From contig JBFFGP010000001.1 of the NCBI GenBank assembly GCA_041557435.1, positions 1 to 34,222 of the forward strand: a stretch of 34,222 nt of DNA. Reading direction: 5' to 3'. The DNA comes from Candidatus Deferrimicrobiaceae bacterium (lineage in GTDB: Bacteria; Desulfobacterota; Deferrimicrobia; Deferrimicrobiales; Deferrimicrobiaceae). The position numbers were made by a program, and so were the translations under genes. Every line of letters starts with the position of its first letter. Positions within the stretch are counted from its first letter, which is position 1. Positions 335 to 28,139 of this stretch are shown piece by piece. The notes under the pieces are model-generated. The model was not told the DNA's origin and did no database searches. It saw nothing but the letters and a program-made list of their open reading frames with translations.

Positions 335-1102
335 GTGCCTCCTATGGGAACGAGGAAACGGTTAGCCGACCTCGGTGCGGTTGCGTCGGGCCTTGCCCAC
401 GAGATCCGCAATCCGTTGAATTCCCTCTACATCAACAGCCAGATTCTCGCGGAGATGCTCGCCGCGCTGCCGGAAGGGGCCACGGACAGGAAGGAAGAGC
501 TCCTTTCCCTCGCCCGGACCAACATGAAGGTCACCCAGCGCCTGAATGACATCCTTTCCGAGTTCCTGCGGTTTGCCCGTCCGACGGCGATGGAGTTCGT
601 TGTGGCGGATTTGAACCGGGTCGTCGCCGACACTCTCCGGTTCCTCGAGGTCGACTTCACGCACCGGGGAATCGAACTTGACGTCTCCTTCCACCCGGAA
701 CCGCTCCCCCTCTTCGCCGATGAGAAACAGTTGCGGCAGGCGCTCCTCAACATCTTCCTCAACGCCGAGGAAGCGATGGACAAGGACCGGAAGATCATCA
801 AGGTGACGACGGGGTTCGAACGGGGACGGCCGTTCGTGCGTGTCGCCGACAATGGCCGGGGGATCTCCCGGTCGGACCGGAAGCAGATCTTCCAGCTCTT
901 TTTCTCCACCAAGAAAAACGGTACCGGTCTGGGACTTCCCATCATCCGGAAGATCGTGCGCGAGCACGGCGGGAAGGTCGGCATCCGCAGTCGGGAAGGA
1001 CTCGGGACGACGGTGACCCTTACTCTCCCTTCGGAAGAGCAATCCAAGGAGAGAATGCAACAGATGGCGGCGGGAAGGCCGCTTCCGGAGAAGGTCCGGT
1101 GA
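335..1102 (+). CDS. Sensor-less histidine kinase (DHp/HisKA plus HATPase_c only), NtrB/AtoS-like
   Basis: H-box GLAHEIRNPLNSL sits about 20 aa from the N-terminus. N-box LLNIFLNAEEAM, G1 DNGRGI and G2 GTGLGLPI are present. An in-frame TAG at 323-325 bounds the ORF, so the start is GTG 335 or ATG 344. The stop overlaps the next start (GTGA at 1099-1102). Confidence 0.82.
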   Translation: MPPMGTRKRLADLGAVASGLAHEIRNPLNSLYINSQILAEMLAALPEGATDRKEELLSLARTNMKVTQRLNDILSEFLRFARPTAMEFVVADLNRVVADTLRFLEVDFTHRGIELDVSFHPEPLPLFADEKQLRQALLNIFLNAEEAMDKDRKIIKVTTGFERGRPFVRVADNGRGISRSDRKQIFQLFFSTKKNGTGLGLPIIRKIVREHGGKVGIRSREGLGTTVTLTLPSEEQSKERMQQMAAGRPLPEKVR

Positions 1103-2484
1103 AAGAGAAGGCGAAAGTTCTCGTATTCGACGACGACACGGACAGCCTCTCGAGCATCGTTGCGGCTTTGCGGCGGGACGGGTTCGAGGTCCATCCCTTT
1201 TCCGACCCGAAGGAGGGGCTTTCCTATCTCGCCTCCGAGGGGGGAGACGTTGTGCTGACCGATCTCAAGATGCCGGGGATCACGGGGATGGATGTGGTCC
1301 ATCGCGTGGTGCAGGACAATCCGGCCGTTCCGGTCGTGGTCGTGACCGCCTTCGGCACCGTGGAGAGCGCGGTGGAGGCGATCCGGGCGGGGGCGTCCGA
1401 CTACCTCATGAAACCGGTGGGGATCCCGCAGTTGCGGGCCGCCGTCTTCAAGGCGACCAAGGAGCGGAGCAAGAACGTGGAGCTCGCGAAGAAGGACAGG
1501 GAGATAAAACGCCTGCGGGAGGAGAGAAAACGGAAACACGGCGTGGGGAGGATCATCGGCGATTCGAGGATGATGGAGGAGATGATCCGGAAAATCCACG
1601 TTGTCGCGCAGACCCGGATGAACGTCCTCATCCTGGGGGAAAGCGGAACGGGCAAGGAACTCGTGGCCCGGGCGATCCACGACGAAAGCCCGAGGTGGGA
1701 TAAGGCCTTCCTGCCGATCAATTGCGCGGCTATCCCTGAGAGTCTCCTCGAATCGGAGCTCTTTGGCCACGAGAAGGGTGCGTTCACCGGCGCGGTCGCC
1801 GCTCGGCAGGGGATGATGGAGATCGCGGAAGGGGGGACCCTGTTCCTCGACGAGGTCGGCGAAATGTCCCTCACGCTGCAGGCCAAGCTATTGCGGGCGA
1901 TCGAGCAGAAGGAAGTGATCCGGGTCGGCGGGTCGGAGGTGATCCGGGTGGATGTACGGATCATCGCGGCGACCAATCAGGATCTCAAGGCGAAAGTGGC
2001 GGGGAAGTCCTTCCGGGAGGACTTGTTCTATCGGCTGAACGTGTTTCCCATTACCGTGCCCCCTTTGCGGGATCGCCGCGAGGACATACCGAAGTTTGCC
2101 ATCCATTTCCTGAAGGAGATCGCACGGGAGAACGATGTTCCCCCCAAGAAATTGTCGGCCGGGGCGCGCATCGCCCTTCTCGCGTACCTGTGGCCGGGAA
2201 ATGTCCGGGAGTTGCGCAACGCCATGGAGACCGCCTCGCTGGTAGCCAGAGGAGAGGCGATCGAAGGGGAGGACCTTCCTCCGGAAATTCTCGAGAACAT
2301 CCTACCTCCCTCCCCTTCCGGGCCGATTCCGCTCCCCTCGTCCCGAACACTCGAGGATATCGAACGGGAGGCCATTCTGGCCGCTTTGGTGAAAACGGAC
2401 GGGAACAAGACACAAGCGGCGAAGATGCTCGGGATCGGGTTGCGCACCCTCCACAGGAAGGTCAAGGAGTACGGGATCTCATGA
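1099..2484 (+). CDS. Sigma-54-dependent response regulator (receiver + AAA+ EBP + Fis-type HTH), NtrC family
   Basis: Receiver with DDD...LTDLKMPG. Walker A GESGTGKE, GAFTGA loop (HEKGAFTGA), Walker B LFLDEVGE. C-terminal HTH GNKTQAAKMLGIGLRTLHRKVKEYGI. Confidence 0.92.
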   Translation: MKEKAKVLVFDDDTDSLSSIVAALRRDGFEVHPFSDPKEGLSYLASEGGDVVLTDLKMPGITGMDVVHRVVQDNPAVPVVVVTAFGTVESAVEAIRAGASDYLMKPVGIPQLRAAVFKATKERSKNVELAKKDREIKRLREERKRKHGVGRIIGDSRMMEEMIRKIHVVAQTRMNVLILGESGTGKELVARAIHDESPRWDKAFLPINCAAIPESLLESELFGHEKGAFTGAVAARQGMMEIAEGGTLFLDEVGEMSLTLQAKLLRAIEQKEVIRVGGSEVIRVDVRIIAATNQDLKAKVAGKSFREDLFYRLNVFPITVPPLRDRREDIPKFAIHFLKEIARENDVPPKKLSAGARIALLAYLWPGNVRELRNAMETASLVARGEAIEGEDLPPEILENILPPSPSGPIPLPSSRTLEDIEREAILAALVKTDGNKTQAAKMLGIGLRTLHRKVKEYGIS

Positions 2485-2532
2485 CCGGAGAAAGGCCCAC
2501 GATATCCCGTCCCCTCGATAGGAAAACGGCGA

Positions 2533-2583
2533 TGCCATTATGGCACTGTCGATGAAGCGGGATGCATGTCATTCTGGCATGCA
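2533..2583 (+). promoter_or_regulatory. Candidate enhancer (UAS) palindromes: TGCCAT-T-ATGGCA (2533-2545) and TGCATG-N9-CATGCA (2563-2583)
   Basis: Both inverted repeats were read directly. They lie about 90-140 nt upstream of the -24/-12-like element, and an AT-rich tract (about 2618-2660) sits in between. This is the classical EBP / DNA-bend / sigma-54 layout. Confidence 0.35.
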
Positions 2584-2665
2584 ATTTTTCCCTCCGCGTT
2601 TCCTTCCCCTATCCTCGTCAGAATAAAATAATAAAAACAATAATATAGGTTTAACACGCGAAGGG

Positions 2666-3091
2666 ATGTCCCTTGGCATGGATATTGATCTACTTAAGGC
2701 GCGGGAGGGGAGAGTGGCACGAAGGGTGGTACTGATAGCGGATGCGCAGGGGGATGACTGGACTCCCATGGCTCCCCTGCTGGGTGCCCTGTCCGATGCG
2801 GGGGCGATGACGGAGCTTTTCTCGGACTGCGCTGCGGGTTTGGTGAGTGCGGTCCGCGGGGGTACGGACCTCCTCGTCATAGACATGGATACGCCTTCGT
2901 TCGGCGGCCTGGACACGTTGGTCAAGATCGGGCGGATCGCATCGCGGGTCCCGGTTCTCCTCCTGTCCGCCGAGGACAGCAATGCGCGGCGGATGTGGGC
3001 CGTGGAGGTGGGCGTGCTGGGGTACGTCACCAAGCCGGTGGACGGGCAGGCGCTCGCGCGTTTCGTGGCGAAGGTGTTGAGAGGATATTAG
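2666..3091 (+). CDS. Stand-alone CheY-like receiver domain protein (alternative start GTG 2714)
   Basis: VVLIADAQGDD...LLVIDMDTPSFGGLD...VLLLSAE...YVTKP places Asp57-, Thr87(Ser)- and Lys109-equivalents correctly. The first Asp of the acidic pair is Ala. If the sigma-54 promoter at 2674 is real, the start must be GTG 2714. Confidence 0.7.
   Translation: MSLGMDIDLLKAREGRVARRVVLIADAQGDDWTPMAPLLGALSDAGAMTELFSDCAAGLVSAVRGGTDLLVIDMDTPSFGGLDTLVKIGRIASRVPVLLLSAEDSNARRMWAVEVGVLGYVTKPVDGQALARFVAKVLRGY
2674..2688 (+). promoter_or_regulatory. Sigma-54 -24/-12-like promoter TGGCAT-GGATA-TTGA
   Basis: Matches TGGCAC-N5-TTGC at GG (2675-2676) with correct spacing to TTG (2685-2687). The -12 C is replaced by A. 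It lies downstream of a sigma-54 EBP gene. An RBS GGGAGGGGAG (2703-2712) and an in-frame GTG (2714) follow. Confidence 0.45.
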
Positions 3092-3122
3092 AACATCATA
3101 AAGGAGAGAGGAGAAAAGGAAG

Positions 3123-5024
3123 ATGGCGAAAATCATCGGGATCGACCTCGGCACCACGAACTCGGCGGTGGCCGTGATGGAAGGCGGGGAGCCCAAGATC
3201 ATCATCAACGAGGAGGGAAGCCGGCTTACGCCTTCGGTGGTCGGCTTCGGCAAGGGGGGCGAGATCCTCGTTGGCCAGGTGGCCAAGCGGCAGGCGGTTC
3301 TGAACCCCGAGAACACCGTCTTCTCGATCAAGCGGTTCATGGGCCGCCGGTACGAGGAGGTAGCCGAGGAGATGAAGCTGGTCCCCTACAAGGTGATCAA
3401 GGATTCCAACCAGAAACCCGCGGTGGCGGCGGGAGGGAAGGAGTACACCCCGGAGCAGATCTCCGCCATGGTGCTGGGGAAGCTGAAAAAAGCCGCGGAG
3501 GCGTATCTGGGCGAGGCGGTGAAGAAAGCGGTCATCACGGTGCCGGCGTACTTCAACGACTCCCAGCGGCAAGCGACCAAGGACGCGGGTGCGATCGCGG
3601 GGCTGGAGGTCCTGCGGATCATCAACGAGCCGACGGCAGCGGCGCTCGCGTACGGCCTCGACAAGAAGAAAAACGAGCTGATCGCGGTCTTCGATTTCGG
3701 GGGGGGCACGTTCGATATCTCGATCCTCGAGGTGGGCGACAACGTCGTCGAGGTGAAGTCGACCAACGGGGATACGCACCTGGGTGGCGACAATATCGAC
3801 ACGCGGATCATCGAGTGGATCGTGACCGAATTCAAGAAGGACCAGGGGATCGACCTGTCCAAGGACCGAACGGCGCTGCAGAGGCTGAAGGAGGGGGCCG
3901 AGAAGGCGAAGATCGAGCTCTCCTCCGTGATGGAGACGGAGATCAGCCTCCCGTTCATCACCGCGGATGCGACGGGGCCCAAGCATCTCCAGTTGAAGCT
4001 CACGCGCAGCAAGCTGGAGCAGATGATCCAGGACATCCTCGACAGGACGCTCCGGCCTTGTGAACTGGCGATCCGGGACGCCGGGATCACCGTGGACAGG
4101 ATCGACGAGGTCGTCCTTGTCGGCGGTTCCACCCGGATTCCGAAGGTCGTCGAGATGGTGAAGGGCTTCTTCCGCCGGGAGCCGCACCAGGGAGTGAACC
4201 CCGACGAGGTGGTGGCGGCGGGCGCCGCCGTTCAGGCGGGCGTGTTAGGCGGAGAGGTGAAGGACCTGCTGCTCCTGGACGTAACCCCGCTGTCGCTCGG
4301 GATCGAGACGCTCGGGGGGGTGATGACGAAGCTCATCGAGAGGAACTCGACGATCCCGGTCCGAAAGAGCGAGATCTTCACGACGGCGGCCGACGGTCAG
4401 ACGAGCGTGGAGGTCCACGTCCTGCAAGGGGAGCGCGAGATGGCGTCCGCCAACCGGACCCTGGGAAGGTTCCACCTCGAGGGGATCCCGGCGGCACCAC
4501 GCGGAGTTCCCAAGATCGAGGTGAGCTTCGACATCGACGCGAACGGCATCCTCCACGTCAACGCGAAGGACACGGCGACCGGCAAGGAGCAGAAGATCAC
4601 GATCACGGCGTCCACCGGTCTCGCCAAGGATGACATCGATCGGATGGTCAAGGAGGCCGAGACGCACTCCGCCGAGGATCGGAAGCGCAAGGCCGTCATC
4701 GAGGCGCGCAACCAGCTCGACTCCCTCGTCTACAACACGGAGAAAACGCTCCGGGAGAACCGGGAGAAGCTGCCCTCCGAGCTTGCGACCGAGGTGGAGA
4801 CCGCCATCAACGAGGCGAAGGAGTCGATGAAGTCCGAGGACGAGACGGTGCTCAAGCAGGCCGCGGAGACGCTCATGCAGCGTTCTCACCGCCTCGCCGA
4901 GCACATGTACAAGGAGACGTCGTCCTCCGCCTCACAACCTCCTCCGGAAGGCGATGCGGAAGGCAAGGAGGGTGAGGGGGAGGTCGTCGACGCCGAGTAC
5001 GAGGACCCCGCCGCGAAGCAGTAG
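3123..5024 (+). CDS. dnaK: Molecular chaperone DnaK (Hsp70)
   Basis: [17 protein letters not shown] and VGGSTRIP signatures, full substrate-binding domain and lid, acidic C-terminus [25 protein letters not shown] lies upstream. Confidence 0.97.
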
Positions 5025-5123
5025 GAGCGGGGGAGTGGAAGGAACCGGGAATACGCCAAACGTACGATGGGCTCGACCCACTATCCGGCCGGGGAACCGG
5101 ACCGGGGGAAAGGAGGACACATC

Positions 5124-5573
5124 ATGACACTGATTCGTTGGACAGACCCATTTCGGGACGTCGCGGTCCTGCAGGATCGGATGAACCGGCTGTTTGGAGA
5201 CTTCCTCGAGCGTGCCAATCCGCAAGAGGAAGGACTGGGAACGGGCATCTGGATGCCCAATGTGGACATTCACGAAACGAAGGACGCCATCTGCGTCCGG
5301 GCGGAGCTTCCCGGCGTGGGCAAGGACGCCGTCAACGTGGAGGTCAAGGAGGGTGTCCTCACCCTGCGCGGGGAGCGCAAGTTCGAGAAGGATGTCCAGG
5401 AGGAGAATTACCACAGGATCGAGCGGTCCTATGGGACGTTCTACCGGTCCTTCTCGCTGCCCTCTTCGGTCAACGAGGAGAAGGTCTCCGCCAGGATGAA
5501 GGACGGCGTGCTGGAGGTGAACCTGCCCAAAAAGGAGCAGGCGAAGCCGAAGCAGATCGAGATAGCTGCGTAA
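5124..5573 (+). CDS. Small heat-shock protein, Hsp20/alpha-crystallin family (copy 1)
   Basis: Alpha-crystallin core: PNVDIHETKDAICVRAELPGV...LTLRGERK...ERSYGTFYRSFSLP...GVLEVNLPK. ATG 5124 is preceded by AGGAGGA (5111-5117). The ORF-track start at 5067 is rejected. Confidence 0.9.
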   Translation: MTLIRWTDPFRDVAVLQDRMNRLFGDFLERANPQEEGLGTGIWMPNVDIHETKDAICVRAELPGVGKDAVNVEVKEGVLTLRGERKFEKDVQEENYHRIERSYGTFYRSFSLPSSVNEEKVSARMKDGVLEVNLPKKEQAKPKQIEIAA

Positions 5574-5595
5574 CGGAATAGAAATATTGAAAAGT

Positions 5596-5627
5596 CGCCT
5601 CGGCCTCCTACACTGGAGGCCGAGGCG
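5596..5627 (+). promoter_or_regulatory. Perfect 13-bp stem-loop (CGCCTCGGCCTCC / GGAGGCCGAGGCG, loop TACACT) immediately 5' of the hsp20 copy-2 RBS
   Basis: Read directly. CCTCCTA (5604-5610) in the 5' arm is also complementary to TAGGAGG (5632-5638), the Shine-Dalgarno of the next gene. No U-tract follows the stem. Confidence 0.5.
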
Positions 5628-5644
5628 GGGATAGGAGGAGAACC

Positions 5645-6097
5645 ATGGCGATTGTACGCTGGCTGGACCCGTTTCGCGATTTGTCGGCAATCCAGGAAAG
5701 GATGAACCAAATTTTCGAGGATGCCCTGTCCCGCTCCCGAGGGAGAGACGAGGGGCTTAGGACGGGGATGTGGACCCCTGCAGTGGACATCTACGAGAAC
5801 AACGACCACGTCGTGGTCAAGGCGGAGCTTCCCGGTGTGGAGAAGGACCAGATCTCCGTGGAGGTCAAGGACGGGATCCTTTCGCTGCGCGGGGAGCGCA
5901 AGTTCGAGAAGGAGGTCAAGGAGGAGAGTTACCACCGGATCGAGCGGTCCTATGGGAGCTTTCAGCGTTCCTTCTCGTTGCCGGTTTCCGTGAACCAGGA
6001 CAAGGTGACCGCGCGGTTCCAGGACGGGGTCCTGGAGGTGAAACTCCCCAAGAGGGAGCAAGCCAAGCCGAAGCAGATCCATGTGGATGTGAAATAA
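5645..6097 (+). CDS. Small heat-shock protein, Hsp20/alpha-crystallin family (copy 2, tandem paralog)
   Basis: Same architecture as copy 1 (by eye roughly three-quarters aa identity). RBS AGGAGGAG is upstream of ATG 5645. Confidence 0.92.
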   Translation: MAIVRWLDPFRDLSAIQERMNQIFEDALSRSRGRDEGLRTGMWTPAVDIYENNDHVVVKAELPGVEKDQISVEVKDGILSLRGERKFEKEVKEESYHRIERSYGSFQRSFSLPVSVNQDKVTARFQDGVLEVKLPKREQAKPKQIHVDVK

Positions 6098-6169
6098 CCG
6101 CGGATTCGGGGTCCGGGGGGCGATACTGCTCCCCGGAGGTCTTTCCCGGGGAGGGTGGCCGTATCGGGG

Positions 6170-7162
6170 ATGGATCCCAGGAAGAACTATTACGAGGTGT
6201 TGGGCGTGTCGGAAAACGCCACCACGGACGAGATCCGGAAGGCGTTCCGGCGGCTGGCGAAGAAGTACCATCCCGACGTGAACCCCGGGGACAAGGCGGC
6301 GGAAGGCCGGTTCAAGGAGATCAACGAGGCGAACGAGGTCCTGGGCGGCGAAAAGAAGCGAGCGGAATACGACGCGGTCCGGAAAGGGGCCTTCACCGGG
6401 GGATTCGGGGGAGGGGGACCGTTCCGGGGACCGGGCGGCTCCGTGTACGACTCCGGGGGATATGGCCACGGGGAACATTTCGATCTCGGTGACATTTTCG
6501 GTGATCTGCTCCGGGGGAGCGGGTTCGCGCAGAACGCCTCGCGAGGGGCCGACCTCGCAATGGACCTTCCGGTGGATTTCCTCGACATGGCGAGGGGAAC
6601 GGAAAGGGACCTTCAGTACAGACGGCCCAGGGTTTGCCCGGCATGCGGGGGGACCGGCCGGTCGGGGCGTCGCGGGTGCCCGCAGTGCGGGGGAGCCGGC
6701 ACGACGGAGAAGGAAGAGCGGATCAAGGTCAAGATCCCCGCGGGGGCGAGGGACGGTTCCACGATCCGCGTGGCGCGCAAGGGAGGCGAGGGGATCGGCC
6801 CGGGAAAGAGCGGGGATCTCGTCATCCGTCTCCGGATGATCCCCCACCCGTACTTCCGCCGTGAAGGGAACAATGTCTATCTGGATGTTCCGGTCACCTA
6901 TTCCGAGGCGGTGAAGGGGGCGAAGATATCCGTGCCCACGATCGACGGAGAGGTGACGGTGTCGGTTCCGGCGGGTTCGTCGAGCGGCAGGAAGCTCCGG
7001 TTGCGGGGGAGAGGCGTCAAGGCGCCGGGGGCATCCTCGCGGGGCGACCAGTACGTGGTGTTGCATGTGGCTGTACCGAAAGAGCAATCCAGAGATTTTT
7101 TGTCGCTTATCGAGAAGCTCGCGGCATTCGAGGACCCGAATTTGCGAGGCGGGTGGAACTGA
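6170..7162 (+). CDS. dnaJ: DnaJ-class J-domain co-chaperone with a reduced (two-motif) zinc finger
   Basis: J domain NYYEVLGV...[13 protein letters not shown]-rich linker. Only two CxxCxGxG motifs ([16 protein letters not shown]). DnaJ C-terminal beta domains follow. ATG 6170 is preferred over GTG 6155. Confidence 0.85.
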
Positions 7163-7210
7163 TTTGGATATAATGGAATCAATACGCAAGAGAGGAGAGT
7201 GAATACGCGT

Positions 7211-8062
7211 ATGGGCAATACTTTGAAAACCGGGTTCCTGCTTGCCCTTCTAACGGTTCTGTTCGTCGCGATCGGGAGCTACGTTGGCGGCCAGGGAGGA
7301 ATGGTCATGGCGTTTGCCTTCGCGGTGCTCATGAACGCGGGGGCCTACTGGTTCTCCGACAAGATCGTACTCAAGATGTATCGCGCCCAGGAGGTATCCG
7401 AAGCGGAGGCGCCGCAGCTCCACGCCACGGTGCACAGGCTCGCAACGGCTGCTTCCCTGCCGATGCCGAAGGTCTATATTATCCCGACGGAATCCCCCAA
7501 CGCCTTCGCCACGGGGAGAAACCCGCAGCACGCCGCCGTCGCCGTGACGCAGGGGATCATGAAAGTTCTTACCCCCGACGAGCTGGAAGGGGTACTTGCC
7601 CACGAAATCGGGCACGTGAAGAACCGGGACATCCTTATCGGGACAATCGCCGCGACGCTTGCGGGGGCCATCATGATTCTGGCGCGGTTCGCCCAGTTCG
7701 CCGCGATCTTCGGGGGAGGAGGAAGGGACCGGGACGAGGGCGGTGGCGTCCTCGGTCTCATCGCGATGGCGATTCTTGCCCCGATCGGCGCGATGCTCGT
7801 CCAGATGGCGGTGTCCCGATCGCGGGAGTACCTGGCCGACGCGAGCGGCGCGAGGTTCTGCGGAAGGCCCGAATCGCTCGCCCGCGCGCTGGAGAAGATC
7901 GCGAGCGCCTCGAGACGCGCTCCCCTGAAGGCCTCGCCTGCAACCGCTCACATGTTTATCCTGAGCCCGCTGTCCGGCAAGGGAATGATGTCGCTGTTCA
8001 GCACGCACCCGCCCGTGGAGAAGAGGGTGGAACGACTGCGTGCGATGCGGGTGGCCGCCTGA
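7211..8062 (+). CDS. htpX: Membrane zinc metalloprotease HtpX (M48 family)
   Basis: [10 protein letters not shown] (HExxH), N-terminal TM helices, and an HtpX-like C-terminal region [17 protein letters not shown] 7211 follows GAGAGGAGAG. The ORF-track start is GTG 7199. Confidence 0.9.
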
Positions 8063-8105
8063 AAGCCCAGTCGCCGGAAGGCGGGAGAGGAGAGTCGGAA
8101 ACCTC

Positions 8106-10376
8106 ATGATGGAGATCTCGTTTTACCGGGAGAAGCTTTCCGAGTCCGGGCACCGGATGCTGAACTCCTCCATCGAGGAGTCGCAACGCCGCCACCACTA
8201 CTATCTCGGACTCGAGCACCTGTTCCTTGCCTTCGCGGAGCAGGAGAAGTCCGTATTTCGCGAGCTCATGGCGTCCGTGGGTTTGAACGTAGAGGCGGTG
8301 CTCTACTCGGTGAACGAGCACTTGAACATCTCCCGGCAGTACCTCGGAGTAGGGCTCAAGGTTCCCCCGGCGACGAAGCAGGTTTTCCGGGTGGCCTGGG
8401 AGACGGCGCAGAGGAACCGGAGGGCCCAGATCGACGCCGCGGACCTGTTCCTCGGGATCTTCCACGAGGTCCATTCGATACCCGCCCGGATTCTCAAGAA
8501 CTACGGGGTCGATCCTGCCGTCGCTCTTTCCCGTTTTTCGACCCAGTTGCGCAGTCGGGAGGAAAAGGTAGAGGAGTTTCGAAAGCGGTATGAGCTCCCC
8601 GCGAACCTGCGGACGTTCGGAGTGAACCTGAACCTTCTCGCACGGGAGGGGAAGATCCCGCCGATCGTCGGGCGGGACAGGGAGATAGACCGGATCATCG
8701 AGTACCTCTGCCACAAGGACCGAAGCAACTCGGTGATGATCGTCGGAGACCCCGGGGTCGGCAAGACCGCGGTAGTGGAAGGTTTCGCCTTGCGGCTGGA
8801 ATACGAGCCGCACCGGGTTCCGGAGCGCCTGCGGGCCCACCAGATCGTCAATCTCCAGATGAACACGGTGGTTGCCGGCACGGTATTCCGCGGGATGTTC
8901 GAGGATCGCATCGAAAAGGTAATCGCCGAGGTCAGGGACCGAAAGAACCTGATCCTGTTCATCGACGAGGCCCACACTCTGATCGGGGCCGGCTCCGCGA
9001 TGGGCGTACCCTCCGACGCCGCGAACATCTTCAAGTCCACGCTCGCCCGGGGGGAGGTCCAGATCATCGGGGCCACTACCATGACCGAATTCAAGGAGAT
9101 CATCCAGGAGGATGAGGCTCTCTCTCGCCGGTTCCGCGTCGTCAAGATCGAGGAACCCACGGTGGAGGAGACGAGGGACATCCTGTTCGGGCTGAAGCCG
9201 AGGCTGGAGACCAATTACGGCGTGGAGATCACGGACGAGGCGATCGAGTTCGCTCTCTCCATGTCCGACCGGTACGCGCGGTCGCTCAGGCTGCCCGACA
9301 AGATCATCAACTGGGTCGACACGGCATGTGTCCGGGTCGAGATCAACGGAGACGAGGAGAAGACCGTCAGGAGCGAAGACGTCCTCGGAGTGGTTTCCGA
9401 GGAGACGAAGACTCCCGCGGACATCGTGCAGCGCGACGTCCTGGACCGGTTCCGGGATCTGGAGGAGAAGATCTCGAGGCGCCTGGTAGGCCAGCACGAG
9501 GCGATCCGGGCCGTAGGGAAGACGCTGCGGCTGAACAAGGGCCCCCTCAAGGAGAATGTCTACCGGCCGGACGGCGTGCTGCTGTTCCTCGGCCCCACGG
9601 GAGTCGGGAAAACGGAGATGGCGAAGGCGCTCACGGAGTACCTGTTCGGCGACGATCGCCACATGGTCCGCGTGGACATGTCCGAGTACCGGGACGGGGC
9701 TCTGGCCGTGGATAAGCTCATCGGGATGCCGCGGGGCATCGTGGGCTCCGAGAGGGGGGGGATTCTGACCAACCAGATGAGGGACAACCCCTATACCGTC
9801 GTCCTTCTCGATGAGATAGAGAAAGCGGACTCTTACGTGCACAACCTTTTCCTGCAGGTCTTCGACGAGGGATGGCTTACCGACGGCCGGGGAAAGAAAG
9901 TCTACTTCTCGGATGCGATCATCATCATGACGAGCAACCTGGGCTCGGAAGAACTCTCGAAACTGACGCGCCCCCTGGGATTTGCGACCGGCGCGGAAGA
10001 TTTCGAGCCGGTGAAGAAAAGCGTACTCAAGGCGGTGGAGAACCGGTTTACCCCCGAGTTCATCAACCGCCTGGACGACGTGATCGTCTTCTCCCCGCTC
10101 ACGTTCGACGAGGTCAAGCGGATCGCGGCGATCTACCTCGAGTCGATCGGGAAGTCGATGGCGGCATCGGGAAAGACGCTATCCTTTTCCGATGCTTCCC
10201 TCGATGCGCTGTCCGGAACGGGCATCAGCGTGAAGTACGGGGCCCGGTTTCTCAAGAGGCATATTGACGAGAAGGTGAAGATGCCGATCACGCTCAAGTG
10301 GAAGGAGTCCGACCGTTTCTACGTCGAGGTGGAAGGCGGGGAGGTGGTCGTAGTAGCAGAGGAGGTGCCCATCTGA
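8106..10376 (+). CDS. ClpA/ClpC-like double-AAA+ (Hsp100) ATPase without a ClpB-type middle domain
   Basis: Clp_N-like repeat. D1 Walker A GDPGVGKT and Walker B LFIDEAH. D2 Walker A GPTGVGKT and Walker B VLLDEIEKA. The D1-D2 linker is short. ATG 8106 follows GGAGAGGAGAG. Confidence 0.85.
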   Translation: MMEISFYREKLSESGHRMLNSSIEESQRRHHYYLGLEHLFLAFAEQEKSVFRELMASVGLNVEAVLYSVNEHLNISRQYLGVGLKVPPATKQVFRVAWETAQRNRRAQIDAADLFLGIFHEVHSIPARILKNYGVDPAVALSRFSTQLRSREEKVEEFRKRYELPANLRTFGVNLNLLAREGKIPPIVGRDREIDRIIEYLCHKDRSNSVMIVGDPGVGKTAVVEGFALRLEYEPHRVPERLRAHQIVNLQMNTVVAGTVFRGMFEDRIEKVIAEVRDRKNLILFIDEAHTLIGAGSAMGVPSDAANIFKSTLARGEVQIIGATTMTEFKEIIQEDEALSRRFRVVKIEEPTVEETRDILFGLKPRLETNYGVEITDEAIEFALSMSDRYARSLRLPDKIINWVDTACVRVEINGDEEKTVRSEDVLGVVSEETKTPADIVQRDVLDRFRDLEEKISRRLVGQHEAIRAVGKTLRLNKGPLKENVYRPDGVLLFLGPTGVGKTEMAKALTEYLFGDDRHMVRVDMSEYRDGALAVDKLIGMPRGIVGSERGGILTNQMRDNPYTVVLLDEIEKADSYVHNLFLQVFDEGWLTDGRGKKVYFSDAIIIMTSNLGSEELSKLTRPLGFATGAEDFEPVKKSVLKAVENRFTPEFINRLDDVIVFSPLTFDEVKRIAAIYLESIGKSMAASGKTLSFSDASLDALSGTGISVKYGARFLKRHIDEKVKMPITLKWKESDRFYVEVEGGEVVVVAEEVPI

Positions 10377-10846
10377 TGTCCGAACAGGAGAAGAAGGGGT
10401 TCAAGGTCGTCGACAGGCGCGGCATGGAGAAAGAGGAGCCGAAGCAGGAAAGAGCGGACCCTCCTCCGGAGCCGAAAGGCGATGTCGGGAACCTGTTGGA
10501 CCCCGGAAGTGTCCATGGTAAGAAAGGCCTGGAAGAAAAGAAATCACGCGTGGGAGGGCCGTCGTTCCTCGATCTCGTGATGTCGCTGCAGATGGGAGCG
10601 ATGGTCAACCTGGGGATGGTCCAGACCGAAGACGGCCGGCGATCCCCGACGAATCTCCCGGCAGCGAAAGATTCGATCGACCTTCTTGACGTCCTCAAGG
10701 AGAAGACGAAGGGAAACCTGACCGAGGAAGAATCGGGCATTCTCTCGGAGGGGCTGTATCACCTTCGGATGACGTACGTGGCGGCCGTCAAGGCGGGAGT
10801 GTCCGCTCCGAATGCGGACCCGGGCCAGGGAGGGAAGAAAACGTGA
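10376..10846 (+). CDS. Small conserved protein of unknown function, DUF1844-like
   Basis: N-terminal FKVVDRR, central FLDLVMSLQMGAMVNLG, C-terminal DLLDVLKEKTKGNLTEEE...LYHLRMTYV. From memory this matches PF08899 (DUF1844). The ATG overlaps the upstream stop (TGATG at 10374-10378) and its own stop overlaps the htrA GTG. Confidence 0.6.
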   Translation: MSEQEKKGFKVVDRRGMEKEEPKQERADPPPEPKGDVGNLLDPGSVHGKKGLEEKKSRVGGPSFLDLVMSLQMGAMVNLGMVQTEDGRRSPTNLPAAKDSIDLLDVLKEKTKGNLTEEESGILSEGLYHLRMTYVAAVKAGVSAPNADPGQGGKKT

Positions 10847-12324
10847 TCGGAAAGGGCAAGGTTGTCGTTCTCGTACTCGCGGCGGTGGCCGCGGGAGTGA
10901 TCCTATCGGCGACGTTGAACATGTCTCCCTTGACCAGCGCGTTCTGGGGGAGCGGGGAGAAGGAAAAGGGCGAAACGGTGGCGGCCGTCGCTCCCGTCAA
11001 GGCACCGGGCGAAATTCTCGCCATCGAGAGCATTCCCGCCCTCGCGAAGGAGGTGTCGCCTTCGGTCGTGAACATCAGCACGACGAAGGTGGTTCGGTCA
11101 CGCAGACCGCGTCTCCGTTCCCCCTTCCGACAGGACCCGTTCGAAGATTTCTTCAACAACTTCTTCGGGAACCTCCCCCGGGAACAGAAACGGAGAAGTC
11201 TGGGCTCCGGGTTCATCGTCTCCGATGACGGGTATATCCTCACCAACAACCACGTCGTAGAGAAAGCCGACGAAATCACGGTGATCCTGCTCGAGAAAGA
11301 GGAGTTTCAGGCGGAGGTGGTAGGCACCGACCCCAAGACCGACATCGCCCTCATCAAGATCAAGGCGGGAAATAAACTTCCGTTTGTCCATCTCGGCGAC
11401 TCGGAAGGATTGGAGATCGGCGAGTGGGTCTTGGCCATCGGGAACCCCTTCGGCCTCGGGCACACCGTCACGGCGGGAATCGTAAGCGCCAAGGGAAGAG
11501 TCATCGGATCCGGGCCGTACGATGATTTCATTCAGACCGACGCGTCGATCAACCCCGGGAACTCGGGAGGACCGCTGTTCAACATGAGGGGAGAAGTTGT
11601 CGGGATCAACACGGCGATCATCCAGGGGGGCCAGGGGATCGGATTTGCGACCCCCATCCGGTTGGCCAAATCGGTGCTCGGCCAGCTGAAGGAGAAGGGG
11701 AAAGTCACCCGCGGCTGGCTCGGCGTCTACATCCAGCGGCTGACCCCGGACATGGCGGAGACACTGAACGTCCCGGGGAAAAAGGGTGCCCTGGTCGCGG
11801 ACGTCACGAAGGACGGGCCGGCGCAAAAGGCGGGGATCCGGTCCGGGGATGTGATCGTCTCGTTTGACGGGAAGGAAGTCGAAGACGAGCACGACCTTCC
11901 CCAGATCGTCGCCTCCACAAAGCCAGGGAAGAAGGTGGAAGTGGTCGTGGTCCGAGAAGGCAAGGAGGAAAGGATTCCCTTGACCATCGCCGAGATGGAG
12001 CCGGATGACAAGGAGAAGCTCGCAGGCGGGCCGGACCTTTCGAAGGGGCTGGGACTCTCGGTCCAGGACATCACGCCGACTGTCGCTCGGCACATGGACA
12101 TCGAGAACCGGAAGGGCGTTCTGGTCTCCTCGGTCGAGCCCGGGAGCCCGGCGGATGATGCAGGCTTCCGCGAGGGCGACATCATCCGGGCGATCAACCG
12201 GGTATCCGTCAATAACTCCGAAGAATTCGAAAAACGGATCAAGGAGGGAAAGGACGACAAGACCGTCCTGTTCCTGGTGGAGCGGGGAGAGGGGCGGATT
12301 TTCCTTGCGTTGAAGAACCGGTAA
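10843..12324 (+). CDS. htrA: Periplasmic serine endoprotease HtrA/DegP (trypsin-like domain plus two PDZ domains)
   Basis: N-terminal hydrophobic anchor. Catalytic His (TNNHVV), Asp (DIALIKI) and Ser (GNSGGPL). Two PDZ-like segments. GTG start. Confidence 0.9.
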   Translation: MIGKGKVVVLVLAAVAAGVILSATLNMSPLTSAFWGSGEKEKGETVAAVAPVKAPGEILAIESIPALAKEVSPSVVNISTTKVVRSRRPRLRSPFRQDPFEDFFNNFFGNLPREQKRRSLGSGFIVSDDGYILTNNHVVEKADEITVILLEKEEFQAEVVGTDPKTDIALIKIKAGNKLPFVHLGDSEGLEIGEWVLAIGNPFGLGHTVTAGIVSAKGRVIGSGPYDDFIQTDASINPGNSGGPLFNMRGEVVGINTAIIQGGQGIGFATPIRLAKSVLGQLKEKGKVTRGWLGVYIQRLTPDMAETLNVPGKKGALVADVTKDGPAQKAGIRSGDVIVSFDGKEVEDEHDLPQIVASTKPGKKVEVVVVREGKEERIPLTIAEMEPDDKEKLAGGPDLSKGLGLSVQDITPTVARHMDIENRKGVLVSSVEPGSPADDAGFREGDIIRAINRVSVNNSEEFEKRIKEGKDDKTVLFLVERGEGRIFLALKNR

Positions 12325-12330
12325 CTCCGT

Positions 12331-12399
12331 GGGGGGGGACATTCCTATCTCAAGTTCCATGTTGAGGAGTGTCCCCCCCATTGCAGGAATGTCCCCCCG
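12331..12399. repeat. Palindromic repeat element built from GGGGACAYTCC units (three units: 12331-12345 forward, 12367-12379 reverse, 12387-12399 reverse)
   Basis: Read directly. Unit 1 can pair with unit 2 (about 20-bp imperfect stem, loop GTTCCATG) or with unit 3. It lies between the htrA stop and the clpB ATG. Confidence 0.6.
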
Positions 12400-12420
12400 A
12401 CCGCGCGGTAAGAATCTCCG

Positions 12421-15066
12421 ATGATTTCTCTGGACAAGCTCACGGTGAAAACGCAGGAGGCCCTGCAGGACGCCGTGCGCATCGCCTCGGAGGCGGGGCA
12501 CGCGCAGGTGGAGCCGGAACATCTCTTTGTCGCCCTGCTCCGGCAGGAAGGGGGAGTGGCGGCGGATCTTTTCACACGAGCAGGAGTGCCGGTCCAGCGT
12601 CTTCTGCCCGAGACGAATTCCCTGCTCGGCTCCTTCCCCAAGGTTTCGGGAGCCGTCAGTCGGGGGCTCTCCCCGCGGATGGAGCCCCTGTTTCAACGGG
12701 CGCTCTCGGAGGCGGACGCATTCCGGGACGAGTATCTCTCCGCCGAACACATCCTCCTCGGGATGACTTCCGAGCCGGGGGCCGTTGCGGACCTGCTCCG
12801 CCGGCATGGGGTGACGCGGGAGGGGCTTCTCACGGCTCTCACCTCCATCCGGGGGACGCAGCGGATCACGGATGAAAACCCCGAGGAGAAGTACCAGGCG
12901 CTCGAGAAGTACTGCCGGGACCTGACGGAATTGGCCCGCCGGGAAAAGCTCGATCCCGTCATCGGAAGGGACGACGAGATCCGGAGGGTGATCCAGGTTC
13001 TCTCCCGCCGGACGAAGAACAATCCCGTCCTGATCGGGGACCCGGGCGTGGGGAAGACGGCGATCGCCGAGGGGCTGGCGCAGCGCGTGGTGTCCGGCGA
13101 TATTCCCGAGGGTCTGCGGGACAAGCGGGTTCTCGCCCTGGACATGGGGGCGCTGATCGCCGGGGCGAAGTACCGCGGCGAGTTCGAGGACCGGCTCAAG
13201 GCGGTCCTTACGGAGATCGCCGCCGCGGAGGGGCGGGTGATCCTTTTCATCGACGAACTTCACACGCTTGTCGGGGCCGGGAAAGTGGAGGGGGCGATGG
13301 ACGCCTCCAACATGTTGAAACCCGCCCTTGCCAGGGGGGAACTGCGCTGCGTCGGGGCGACCACCCTGGACGAGTACCGCAAGTACGTGGAGAAGGACGC
13401 TGCGCTGGAGAGGCGGTTTCAGCCCGTTCTTGTGGAGGAGCCGTCGGTCGAGGATACGATTGCGATCCTGCGCGGTCTCAAGGGGAGGTACGAGGTCCAC
13501 CACGGGGTCCGGATCAAGGATTCGGCCCTCATCGCCGCCGCCACCCTGTCGAACCGGTATATCTCCGACAGGTTCCTTCCCGACAAGGCGATCGACCTGG
13601 TGGACGAGGCCGCGTCGAAGCTCAAGATCGAGATCGACTCCGTGCCCACCGAGATCGACGAGGTCGAGAGGAAGATCATCCAGCTGGAGATGGAAAAGCA
13701 GGCCCTGTCGAAGGAGACCGACGCCGCCTCGGGAACGCGCCTTGCCCGCCTCCAGGAAGAGCTGGCGGGGCTGAAGGGAAAGGCGACGGAGTACCGCTCC
13801 CTGTGGGAGGAGGAGAAAAAGTCCATCGGGAGGAGCCGCGAGATCAAAGAGAACATCGAGCGGGCCCTTTCGGAAATGCAGCGGGCCGAGCGGGAAGGAA
13901 ACCTCGGCAGGGCGTCGGAGCTCAAGTTCGGCGTCATCCCGGCACTGCAGCGGGAAGCGGAGGAGCTAAGCGGGGACACTCCCGTTTCACTCACCGGGGA
14001 CATTCCTGATTCATCTCCGGAATACGGGAGAGGAGTGTCTCCGCACAGGGAGCGGCTCCTCAAGGAGGAGGTGGACGAGGAAGACATCGCCCAGATCGTT
14101 TCGCGCTGGACCGGAATCCCGGTATCGAGGCTGGTCGAGGGGGAGATCGAGAAGCTCGTACGGATGGAGGAACGGCTGACCAAACGGGTTGTGGGACAGG
14201 ACGACGCCGTCCGGCTCGTCTCAAACGCCGTCCGCCGCGCCAAGTCGGGCTTGAAAGACCCCCGACGCCCTATCGGGTCTTTCCTGTTCATGGGTCCCAC
14301 CGGTGTTGGGAAAACGGAGCTGGCCCGTGCCCTGGCCCAGTTCCTCTTCGATGACGAGTCGGCGATGGTGCGCCTCGACATGTCCGAATACATGGAGAAG
14401 CACTCCGTGGCGCGGATGATCGGGGCTCCGCCCGGGTACGTGGGGTACGAGGAGGGGGGAGCGCTGACCGAGGCGGTGCGACGGAAGCCGTACACCGTGA
14501 TCCTGTTCGACGAGGTGGAGAAGGCACACCCCGACGTCTTCCACATCCTCCTGCAGATCCTTGAGGACGGGCGCCTGACCGACGGAAAGGGACGGACCGT
14601 CGATTTCCGGAATGCCGTTGTGGTCCTCACCTCGAACATCGGCTCCCACTGGATCCAGGAGCTCTCCGGCAAGGGAGAGGAGGTTGTCCGGAACAAGGTA
14701 ATGGAGGAACTCCGCCGCGAATTCCGTCCCGAGTTCCTGAACCGGCTGGACGAAATCGTCCTGTTCCGTTCCCTCGGGAGGGAGGAGTTGGCAATAATCA
14801 TCCTGATCATGCTTCGGGAGCTAAACGAAAGGCTCGCAGACAGGAAGATCTCGGTGACGCTCACCGATGCTGCCCGGGAGAGGCTCGCGGAGATCGGTTT
14901 CGATCCCACGTACGGGGCAAGGCCGCTGCGCCGCGCCATACAGAAGCATATTCAGGACCTCTTGGCGCTCCATATCCTCAAGGGGGATTTTCGCGAAGGG
15001 GAGTCCATCCTGATAGACGCGGATGGAAACTCCGGGTTTTCCTTCCGGAAATCGGATTCGCAGTGA
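12421..15066 (+). CDS. clpB: Disaggregase ClpB (Hsp104 family) with M-domain
   Basis: Clp_N. D1 GDPGVGKT / FIDELH with pore loop KYRGEFE. Long coiled-coil M-domain. D2 GPTGVGKT / LFDEVEKA with pore loop GYVGYEEGG. 881 aa. Confidence 0.96.
13972..14041. repeat. Second copy of the GGGGACAYTCC palindromic element, in frame inside clpB
   Basis: GGGGACACTCC (13972-13982), GGGGACATTCC (13996-14006), GGAATAC (partial) and GGAGTGTCTCC (14031-14041) are arranged as nested inverted repeats. The stretch encodes [24 protein letters not shown]. Confidence 0.55.
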
Positions 15067-26050: not shown

Positions 26051-26706
26051 ATCCGGAGAAACTCCCTTGCCCGCTCCCGGATCCCCGGGCCGCCGAACAG
26101 GTCCGAGATCACTGCGAATCCGGCTGCTCCCGCCCGGATCACCTCCCGGACGTTCTGCCGGGTGATCCCGGAAATGGCGATCGCGGGGAGGGAGACAGCT
26201 CCCGCCACCTCCGTGACAAGCGTCAGCCCCCCGGGCTCCCGAGTGTCGCTCTTGGTGGTCGTCGGGAAGATCGCTCCTACGCCGATATAGTCTGCCCCGT
26301 CCTGCTCCGCTCTCTTCGCATCGCCGACATTGTGCGTCGACGCTCCCAGGAGGAACCCCGGCGGGACCACCCTCCGTGCTTCCGCAAGGGGGAGATCGCC
26401 CTGCCCGAGATGGCACCCGTTAGCCTCCGCCATCAGGGCCGCATCGAGACGGTCGTTGACGATGAAGAGGGCCCCGACTTTTTCGCAGATCCCGGCAAGC
26501 CGCCGGGCCCGAAAGAACATCTCCCGGGGGGAGGCTTTTTTGTCCCGGTACTGGATGATCCGGCATCCTCCCGCTAACGCCTCCGAGAGGGCTATTTCCA
26601 GCTCCTCTTCGGGGTCTTTCGCTTCGAGGGCGATTACGGTGGGGTCCAGGATTCCGTAGAGCCCTTCGATCCGGGGGGTTGGAATGACGGCACGATTCCC
26701 GTTCAT
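26023..26706 (-). CDS. thiE: Thiamine-phosphate synthase
   Basis: LYGILDP...GGCRIIQYRDK...FIVNDR.D.A......G.HLGQ.DLP...GAS.H...GADYIGVG.IF.T.TK. Confidence 0.9.
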   Translation of the reverse strand: MNGNRAVIPTPRIEGLYGILDPTVIALEAKDPEEELEIALSEALAGGCRIIQYRDKKASPREMFFRARRLAGICEKVGALFIVNDRLDAALMAEANGCHLGQGDLPLAEARRVVPPGFLLGASTHNVGDAKRAEQDGADYIGVGAIFPTTTKSDTREPGGLTLVTEVAGAVSLPAIAISGITRQNVREVIRAGAAGFAVISDLFGGPGIRERAREFLRIWEEEKDRR

Positions 26707-28139
26707 CGGGATTTCCTTTTCCTGGGCAGGAGGGTGAGGGAAGACAACTTTTTCCGAAGGGTGTTCCGGTTGATCCCCAGGATCGCCGCAGCCTTGACCT
26801 GGTTTCCCCCCGTTGCCTCCAGGACGATCTTGAGGAGCGGCTTTTCCATCTGCCGGAGGAAGTAATCATGCAGATCGTTCTCGCTTTCGATCGCCGTCCC
26901 CAGTCGGCCGACGAACTCCCGGACCCGCTCCTCGATGACCTGCTCCAGCGGGGCGGAAGAGAGATCCAGCGCGCCATCCGATTTTGCCAGCTCCCGCGCC
27001 ACCTCGTCCCGCCGAAGGAGCTTTCCCGTGGAGAGGACGGCAAGTCTCTGCACGAAATTTTCGAGTTCGCGCACGTTGCCTTTCCAGTTATGGGATGCCA
27101 CCACCTCCAGTGCCTCCTTCGAGAACGACCGGGGGGGGCGGGAAAGGATCGCGCAATACTTCTGCAGGAAATAATCCGCGAGAAGGGGGATGTCCTCCCG
27201 TCTCTCCGACAGGGGGGGAACACGGATCGGGAAGACGTTCAGCCTGTCGAAGAGGTCCTCCCGGAACTTGCCGTCTGCGACCATCCGTCGAAGGTCCCGA
27301 TTGGTCGCCGCGATGACGCGCCCCCGGAACGGAAGGGTTTGGTTCGATCCCAGCTTCGAGTATTCCCTTTCCTGCAACACTCGGAGGAGCTTCGCCTGGA
27401 GGTCGGCCGGGAGGTCCCCGATCTCGTCGAGGAAAAGGGTGCCCCCCGCGGCAGCCGCAAGTTTCCCCTCCCGGGCGGTCTCCGCCCCGGTGAACGCCCC
27501 CTTCTCGAAGCCGAACATCTCCGCCTCCTGCAGGTCCCTGGGGATGGCGGAGGCATTGATCGCCACGAAATGGCCGTTCTGGGAGCTGAGCTCATGGATG
27601 CAGCGGGCCACAAGCTCCTTTCCCACTCCGCGGTCTCCCAAAAGCAGGACGGTGACGTCGGAGTTCGCCACCTTCCCCACCCCCTGGAACACCTCCAGGA
27701 TGGCGCGGCTCCGGCCCACGATCCGGGCGGACTTCCACTCCTCGGGGTCCTCCATCCGGAACGGCCGCTCGCGGGAGGAGGAAACCTTTGCGACATCCCG
27801 GAGCAGTTCCTCTATGTGTGCGATGTCGAACGGCTTGGTGATGAACTCTTCGGCGCCCGCACGGGTGGAGCGGGCGGCGGCGTCCGGGCGGCGGACGGCT
27901 GTCATGATGAAGAACCGGGTCGGGGACTTTCTCGCCTGGATCCGCTCCAGCACCTCGATTCCTTCCATGCCGGGCATGCGGATGTCGATGAAAGCCGCGG
28001 TGTAGGTGTTCCGCGTAAGAAGGGATAGCGCCTTCTCCCCGTTTTCCGCCAGGTCGGGTGCGAACCCCATCGACGCCACCGTCTTCTTGAGGACCCAGCG
28101 AATGCTTTCGTCGTCGTCGGCTATGAGGACCTTCTTCAC
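26703..28139 (-). CDS. Sigma-54-dependent response regulator, NtrC-like
   Basis: Receiver KKVLIADDDESIRW...FIDIRMPGMEG. AAA+ GDRGVGKE, GAFTGA (FEKGAFTGA), LFLDEIGD. C-terminal HTH GNQVKAAAILGINRNTLRKK. GTG start at 28139 overlaps the kinase stop (GTGA). Its stop overlaps the thiE ATG (ATGA). Confidence 0.9.
   Translation of the reverse strand: MKKVLIADDDESIRWVLKKTVASMGFAPDLAENGEKALSLLTRNTYTAAFIDIRMPGMEGIEVLERIQARKSPTRFFIMTAVRRPDAAARSTRAGAEEFITKPFDIAHIEELLRDVAKVSSSRERPFRMEDPEEWKSARIVGRSRAILEVFQGVGKVANSDVTVLLLGDRGVGKELVARCIHELSSQNGHFVAINASAIPRDLQEAEMFGFEKGAFTGAETAREGKLAAAAGGTLFLDEIGDLPADLQAKLLRVLQEREYSKLGSNQTLPFRGRVIAATNRDLRRMVADGKFREDLFDRLNVFPIRVPPLSERREDIPLLADYFLQKYCAILSRPPRSFSKEALEVVASHNWKGNVRELENFVQRLAVLSTGKLLRRDEVARELAKSDGALDLSSAPLEQVIEERVREFVGRLGTAIESENDLHDYFLRQMEKPLLKIVLEATGGNQVKAAAILGINRNTLRKKLSSLTLLPRKRKSR

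Follow-up and report, generated by a model that had tools for sequence, protein, structure and literature searches.

The window analyzed here, the whole stretch of 34,222 nucleotides, is the entire contig C1 of a 945-kb MAG that is ~60% complete. Close to its start lie the genes for a histidine kinase and an NtrC-type EBP (also called the activator below), followed by a 229-nt gap, a single-domain receiver gene and a series of chaperone and protease genes; the upstream kinase/EBP pair and the downstream chaperone genes are all on the plus strand (Table 1). The 3' end of the kinase gene overlaps the start of the EBP gene. The nearest NCBIfam models for the kinase were AtoS and ZraS, with scores under their cut-offs. 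The EBP fell under every NCBIfam equivalog cut-off, the nearest models being AtoC, NtrC and ZraR (AtoC 449 vs 714 bits), and its GAFTGA motif was located at residues 227-232. No terminator-like site was found on the plus strand outside coding sequence along the downstream genes to 15066, and the genes at 3123-15066 are probably co-transcribed with the receiver. An imperfect inverted repeat lies across the EBP stop codon at 2471-2510 (ACGGGATCTCATG / CACGATATCCCGT, 85% complementary, 14-nt gap) with no T-run after it. The window also holds another sigma-54 activator gene (26703-28766, minus strand), a 687-aa ORF with a Sigma54_activat domain, and no TGGCAY-N5-TTG match was seen near it.

Table 1. 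Genes and control elements of the kinase-activator-chaperone locus, in window coordinates
Feature	Coordinates	Strand	Basis or remarks
Histidine kinase, 255 aa, HisKA + HATPase_c only	335..1102	+	Pfam
NtrC-type EBP: REC, sigma-54 AAA+, C-terminal Fis-type HTH NKTQAAKMLGIGLRTLHRK	1099..2484	+	Pfam
UAS site 1, TGCCATTATGGCA	2533..2545	.	10/10 to TGCCA-N3-TGGCA; centre -137 from -24 G
9-pair hairpin TGCATGTCA/TGGCATGCA, then T5 at 2585-2589	2563..2589	+	Terminator-like; window-specific extension of site 2
UAS site 2, TGTCATTCTGGCA	2567..2579	.	9/10; centre -103 from -24 G; 34 bp from site 1
AT-rich tract	2621..2656	.	Position conserved, sequence not
IHF-consensus-like site, AAACAATAATATA	2635..2647	+	2 mismatches to WATCAANNNNTTR; centre -35 from -24 G
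Putative -24/-12 element, TGGCAT-GGATA-TTGA	2674..2688	+	GG 2675-2676; G -13 at 2687; A at -12, 2688
Predicted transcription start	2699..2701	+	Usual -24/-12 geometry, G2676 as -24
Shine-Dalgarno region, GGGAGGGGAG	2703..2712	+	Just 5' of GTG 2714
Single-domain receiver, first cistron	2714..3091	+	GTG start 2714 (MARRVVLIAD...)
dnaK, hsp20, hsp20, dnaJ-like, M48 peptidase (htpX-like), Clp ATPase, DUF1844, HtrA, ClpB	3123..15066	+	Pfam

The locus was compared with ~45 orthologous loci covering 14 of 14 genera of the family together with class- and phylum-level relatives; these relatives are kin, so that counts across them overstate independence. The first set of orthologues was obtained by a search with the receiver protein, which returned EBP-receiver-dnaK loci from 19 genomes within the family and from 4 that are more distant, with 22 readable gaps. 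The second set consisted of 7 closer MAGs and 10 further family genomes. The orthologous gaps had diverged past the point where they could be aligned.

The original prediction had placed a sigma-54-type promoter at 2674-2688, and TGGCAT-GGATA-TTGA was found at exactly these positions. Membership in the sigma-54 class was judged by whether TGGCAC-N5-TTGCW is matched with exactly 10 bp between the GG and G(C) doublets, and the promoter was scored by its consensus mismatches and against a frequency table derived from the orthologues. The spacing between -24 and -12 was correct, and the sequence deviated at two positions, -21 (T) and -12 (A), where the consensus has C. TGGCAY-N5-TTG matched once in the 34-kb window, at this element, compared with a mean of 0.22 in shuffled sequence; at least one match occurred in 19 of 100 shuffles, so the single match taken alone was suggestive and not decisive. 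GGCAY-N5-TTG, in turn, was present in all 22 orthologous gaps, 25-41 nt 5' of the receiver start, against 0.15 expected from shuffled gaps. Positions that did not anchor the search also matched the sigma-54 consensus, with T before GG in 17/22, G after CAC in 20/22 and T after -12 in 18/22. The same pattern recurred in the 7 closer MAGs and the 10 further family genomes. TGGCAT-GGATA-TTGA is thus predicted to be a conserved -24/-12 promoter, from which transcription would start at about position 2700 and leave a leader of ~14 nt carrying the Shine-Dalgarno sequence. Three other sigma-54-like words near it were rejected because a correctly spaced TTG was missing from each: TGGCAC-N5-ATGA (2541) belongs to UAS 1, TGGCAT-N5-TTTT (2576) to UAS 2, and TGGCAC-N5-GTGG (2716) corresponds to the Met-Ala-Arg codons.

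The receiver gene is absent in genus g2 (0 of 28 genomes) and in genus g9. Five genomes of these two genera were examined (L102-L106), and all had kept the EBP gene, both upstream sites and the AT-rich segment/IHF-like word, with a TGGCACGGGACTTGTT promoter directly 5' of dnaK and a leader of 50-84 nt. As the promoter is retained in front of dnaK where there is no receiver, it appears to be the promoter of the dnaK operon and not a by-product of receiver coding sequence, and the receiver can be regarded as an optional first cistron. Where the receiver is present its start codon could also be placed. ATG 2666 opens a 141-aa ORF; this codon is not conserved and would put the promoter within the gene. 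Alignments of the receiver begin with the codon that corresponds to GTG 2714, in some genera 3-12 nt before it, and in several orthologues the stretch from the promoter to the aligned start contains an in-frame stop or lacks a start codon. The spacing from promoter to start is conserved among the orthologues, which carry GGAGG at the same place a few bases upstream. A start at GTG 2714 with a strong RBS, as first proposed from the window sequence and here preceded by GGGAGGGGAG, is favoured over ATG 2666, and the annotated start of the receiver would move accordingly from the latter to the former.

Sites for a bEBP were sought as inverted repeats ~80-200 bp upstream of the promoter, adjoining the gene for an EBP with a DNA-binding domain. 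Two 13-bp palindromes lie at the right distance next to the gene for an EBP with a Fis-type HTH. The first is the TGCCAT-T-ATGGCA repeat already reported at 2533-2545, which was confirmed in the sequence and corresponds to UAS site 1. The second had been described as TGCATG-N9-CATGCA at 2563-2583; this repeat is present, but its outer arms are specific to this genome and do not form a conserved site, whereas the inner TGTCA-N3-TGGCA (2567-2579) is conserved. What is conserved is a palindrome of 13 bp, (G)TGCCA-N3-TGGCA(C), mostly present in two copies. A palindrome with 6-bp arms is not rare in a 229-nt gap and therefore the weight rests on conservation. With distances counted from the second G of the GG doublet, most family genomes have one site centred between -136 and -139 and the other between -103 and -108, 30-35 bp apart, and these centres remain at about -138 and -104 even between genera in which the surrounding DNA can no longer be aligned. 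A match of at least 9/10 was found in 17 of the 22 orthologous gaps compared with 0.16 in shuffles. TGYCA-N3-TGRCA matched twice in the window, both times in the gap (shuffles 0.04; two matches in none of 100 shuffles), and these two sites were the only ones in the 945-kb assembly. The right half-sites of the two palindromes, TGGCAC at 2541-2546 and TGGCAT at 2575-2580, are the same word as the -24 hexamer.

No second target with activator sites was found in the 945-kb assembly, and in a wider regulon search the loose pattern TGYCANNNTGGCR was about as frequent as its control in four of five family genomes. A second TGCCA-N3-TGGCA-like pair was seen in one relative (L085, G018:C95, ~1500-1600, minus strand), where TGCCAAAATGGCA and TGTCATCTTGGCA lie 21 bp apart, ~55-85 nt upstream of a canonical TTGGCATGGGCGTTGCT promoter. 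The locus is flanked by the 3' end of an ABC-transporter-like gene on one side and by an IS3-like transposase fragment on the other. In that genus, the same activator may regulate this locus as a second target.

The second palindrome together with its T5 run could instead be mainly the intrinsic terminator of the kinase-activator operon and not an enhancer site. A consensus scan scored it as terminator-like, with 9 pairs, a 3-nt loop and then ATTTTT, the RNA fold of 2555-2600 gave -16.6 kcal/mol (z -2.4), and the hairpin lies 79 nt past the EBP stop codon. However, G-C pairs make up only 4 of the 9 in the stem, the outer arms and T-run are missing in the orthologues, in which only the inner TGTCA-N3-TGGCA is conserved, and site 2 keeps the same -103/-106 position everywhere. 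In one genus the EBP reading frame ends within site 1, so that a terminator would have no space. Termination therefore cannot be the conserved function, and we consider it rather unlikely as the main role of this palindrome, although the hairpin may reduce read-through from the EBP gene in this genome. A search of 2300-3300 against Rfam (E <= 1) gave no match, indicating that no known thermometer or leader RNA explains the region.

Between the enhancer sites and the promoter, an AT-rich tract had been predicted at about 2620-2656; the string was found at 2621-2656, and it is the position that is conserved in the orthologues. GC content in the tract was 0.38-0.40 compared with ~0.62 around it, and nowhere else in the first 8 kb is the G+C content as low as in the gap. 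Mean AT content over the 22 orthologous gaps was 0.65-0.75 at -55 to -30 from the GG, compared with 0.37 for the whole loci. Within the tract AAACAATAATATA matched the IHF consensus WATCAANNNNTTR at 7 of 9 specified positions. When the gaps were scanned position by position on the plus strand, allowing up to 2 mismatches, 11 of the 22 had an IHF match centred exactly at -35 and 0-2 had one at any other position. The assembly encodes an IHF-beta (124.1 bits against an NCBIfam equivalog cut-off of 115) and a second HU/IHF-family protein, and IHF-alpha was not found in this ~60%-complete assembly. IHF has a described role at Pu, psp and Po (cited in PMC5095919). Involvement of IHF is plausible at this locus as well, although the bend is the weakest of the three elements, behind the UAS and the promoter.

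The AT-rich tract can also be read as a sigma-70 promoter or UP-like element that provides basal dnaK expression in place of an IHF bend. TCGTCA-18-AATAAT at 2615-2644 is a 9/12 match, and the lineage, having a single dnaK, has to express it under unstressed conditions too. A single match of this kind is about what shuffling produces (0.5 expected), however, and weak -10-like words arise by chance in AT-rich DNA. What is fixed across the orthologues is the IHF-like word at -35 from the GG and not a -35/-10 hexamer pair, which makes the sigma-70 promoter quite improbable and leaves an IHF-like bend as the preferred reading of the tract. The order of UAS, IHF-like bend and -24/-12 set out in the original prediction was borne out, with the same fixed spacing in the family and in the class- and phylum-level relatives. 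All of these motifs might be chance matches in ordinary intergenic DNA, as short palindromes are common and 19 of 100 window shuffles gave a -24/-12-like match. This explanation has next to no likelihood with the promoter pattern in 22 of 22 gaps against 0.15 expected and with the UAS and IHF-like positions fixed.

Variation among the genera gave an indication of which protein reads the enhancer sites. In all five genomes of genus g13 (L013, L014, L092-L094), palindromes of the type TATCA-N3-(T/C)GATA occupy the same two positions (-138 and -104), and the HTH of the EBP is altered to NKKEAAK.LGIG[VI]ATLHRK. All the other lineages that were examined, as far as the phylum-level relatives, kept NKT.AAK.LGIGLRTLHRK with its Arg together with the TGCCA word. 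Compared with the NKTQAA...GLRTLHRK type, the g13 HTH differs by Arg-to-Ala and TQ-to-KE. Replacement of Arg by Ala at the start of the recognition helix along with a change from G-C to A-T in the half-sites is what would be expected from the loss of an Arg-guanine contact. This co-change suggests that the neighbouring EBP is the binding protein; as a single evolutionary event it suggests and does not prove EBP binding. Genus g13 is accordingly a candidate natural specificity switch that can be used to study how Fis-type EBP domains read DNA.

Alternatively, the TGCCA-N3-TGGCA sites could be read by another regulator, either a repressor or a different activator, in which case the adjacent EBP would not bind there. 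A similar site pair does occur at an unrelated locus in a relative. But the sites are always found with this EBP gene and a sigma-54 promoter, at distances typical of enhancers; in g13 they changed along with the recognition helix of the EBP, and this assembly has them nowhere else. We consider another regulator very improbable and the neighbouring EBP the likely reader of the sites.

The A at -12 is shared in kind by nearly all of the orthologues, as the base was T in 12, A in 5, G in 4 and C in 1 of the 22, so that the canonical C was replaced in 21/22. Other sigma-54-like matches were assessed by counting patterns against controls, and a crude ORF-context classification of the matches in G000 was dropped as uninformative. 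Across five family genomes TGGCACG-N4-TTGC was enriched, with 17 matches compared with 6 for the reversed-pattern control. TGGCACG-N4-TTG[A/G/T] was not enriched in these five genomes (12 matches against 14 in the control), and 2 of the 12 were orthologues of this promoter. Judged by these counts, a base other than C at -12 is not a trait of the sigma-54 of the lineage. Functional promoters are known to tolerate a non-consensus -12 (PMC4551910), and A at this position is therefore no bar to membership in the sigma-54 class. A non-consensus -12 has also been linked to weaker repression and to low-level activator-independent transcription, and higher temperature raises bypass transcription (PMC4551910; PMC5095919). 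As the only dnaK needs basal expression and no RpoH reached the cut-off in five near-complete family genomes, the non-canonical -12 might speculatively supply basal expression or direct heat sensitivity. In the fullest form of this idea, loss of the C would be functional: a weakened sigma-54 'lock' at the -12 fork junction would leave the dnaK promoter leaky at normal temperature, a response to heat or DNA melting would act on top of the two-component control, and the part of heat-shock sigma factor in Ca. Deferrimicrobiota would fall to sigma-54 in place of the missing RpoH. We hold this to be decidedly unlikely. The conserved non-C base offers a natural variant for study of the -12 lock.

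The wider gene content was also surveyed. rpoN was not found in the ~60%-complete assembly; 39 of 41 relatives have it, among them 23 of the 24 that belong to the same family. The assembly carries six EBP genes. Each of five near-complete family genomes (G002, G005, G006, G007 and G012) had one Hsp70-family gene, which sits behind this promoter, and one HrcA. RpoH gave no match at cut-off in those five genomes. The heat-shock circuitry of the family thus seems to consist of HrcA and this sigma-54 system. With the sole Hsp70 gene placed after this promoter and no RpoH seen in these genomes, a core proteostasis gene appears to be under the control of sigma-54 and a single dedicated activator. 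Sigma-54 supports essentially no transcription without an activator. Control of a core gene would be unusual for such an activator-dependent sigma factor.

Together these data make it very probable that the gap at 2485-2713 is the control region of a sigma-54-dependent chaperone/protease operon. In the proposed mechanism, the histidine kinase (335-1102), which has no input domain, would respond to a presumed signal by phosphorylating the neighbouring NtrC-type activator (1099-2484), which would then assemble on the TGYCA-N3-TGGCA palindromes at 2533-2545 and 2567-2579. The AT-rich segment with its IHF-like site (2635-2647) would bend the DNA and let the bound activator touch sigma-54 RNA polymerase, which would be waiting at TGGCAT-N5-TTGA (2674-2688) as a closed complex. 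The activator would open the promoter by hydrolysing ATP, with transcription starting near 2700, and the short leader would carry the RBS of the receiver (GTG 2714), followed, over the predicted length of the operon, by the genes from dnaK to clpB. For Ca. Deferrimicrobiota (formerly MBNT15), an uncultured phylum, this provides a testable model in which a kinase, an activator, the enhancer word TGCCA-N3-TGGCA, an IHF-like bend and a sigma-54 promoter are tied to the main chaperone/protease operon.

A literature search found no paper on this activator, on the enhancer word or on sigma-54 control of dnaK in Deferrimicrobiota. In Myxococcus xanthus, the kinase HsfB and the sigma-54 activator HsfA were reportedly first tied to the heat-shock gene lonD, an arrangement similar to that of the locus described here in that a two-component kinase and an NtrC-type activator are linked to a heat-shock/protease gene. 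The HsfBA phosphorelay is established in that organism (PMC9109919). The closest NCBIfam models belong to the ZraSR and AtoSC systems of E. coli (AtoS and ZraS for the kinase; AtoC, NtrC and ZraR for the activator). ZraR drives a chaperone-like envelope-stress gene. The proteins of this locus differ in scoring far under the equivalog cut-offs, in a kinase without a sensor domain and in having cytoplasmic chaperones as the predicted targets.

Sigma-54 promoter matches predicted by PSSM are enriched upstream of dnaK, dnaJ, grpE, groES/EL and ibpA-type genes in Bacteroidota and Planctomycetota (PMC12316311). That survey used the PSSM only and assigned no activator or enhancer, whereas both are predicted here. 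EBP homologues from Planctomycetota, Poribacteria and Bacteroidota (40-46% identity) were considered as candidate orthologues of a heat-shock EBP and rejected; none adjoins chaperone genes or carries the UAS, and they are therefore regarded as paralogues. The sigma-54 regulome of D. vulgaris lists no chaperone regulon (PMC4641369).

The closest likeness in architecture is to the classical NtrC/NifA/XylR/PspF-type promoters with IHF (glnHp2, nifH, Pu and pspA). As in those systems, tandem inverted-repeat enhancers lie more than 100 bp upstream, an IHF-type bend separates them from a GG-N10-G(C) core, and the activator is composed of REC, AAA+ (GAFTGA) and a Fis-type HTH. In contrast to the classical type, the predicted target is a chaperone/protease operon with the sole dnaK detected, the enhancer word reads TGCCA-N3-TGGCA, other bases stand in for the C at -12 across the lineage, and the predicted leader is very short at ~14 nt. 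With these differences, the region is, as far as its sequence allows it to be read, a new and well-conserved instance of the classical sigma-54 control region.
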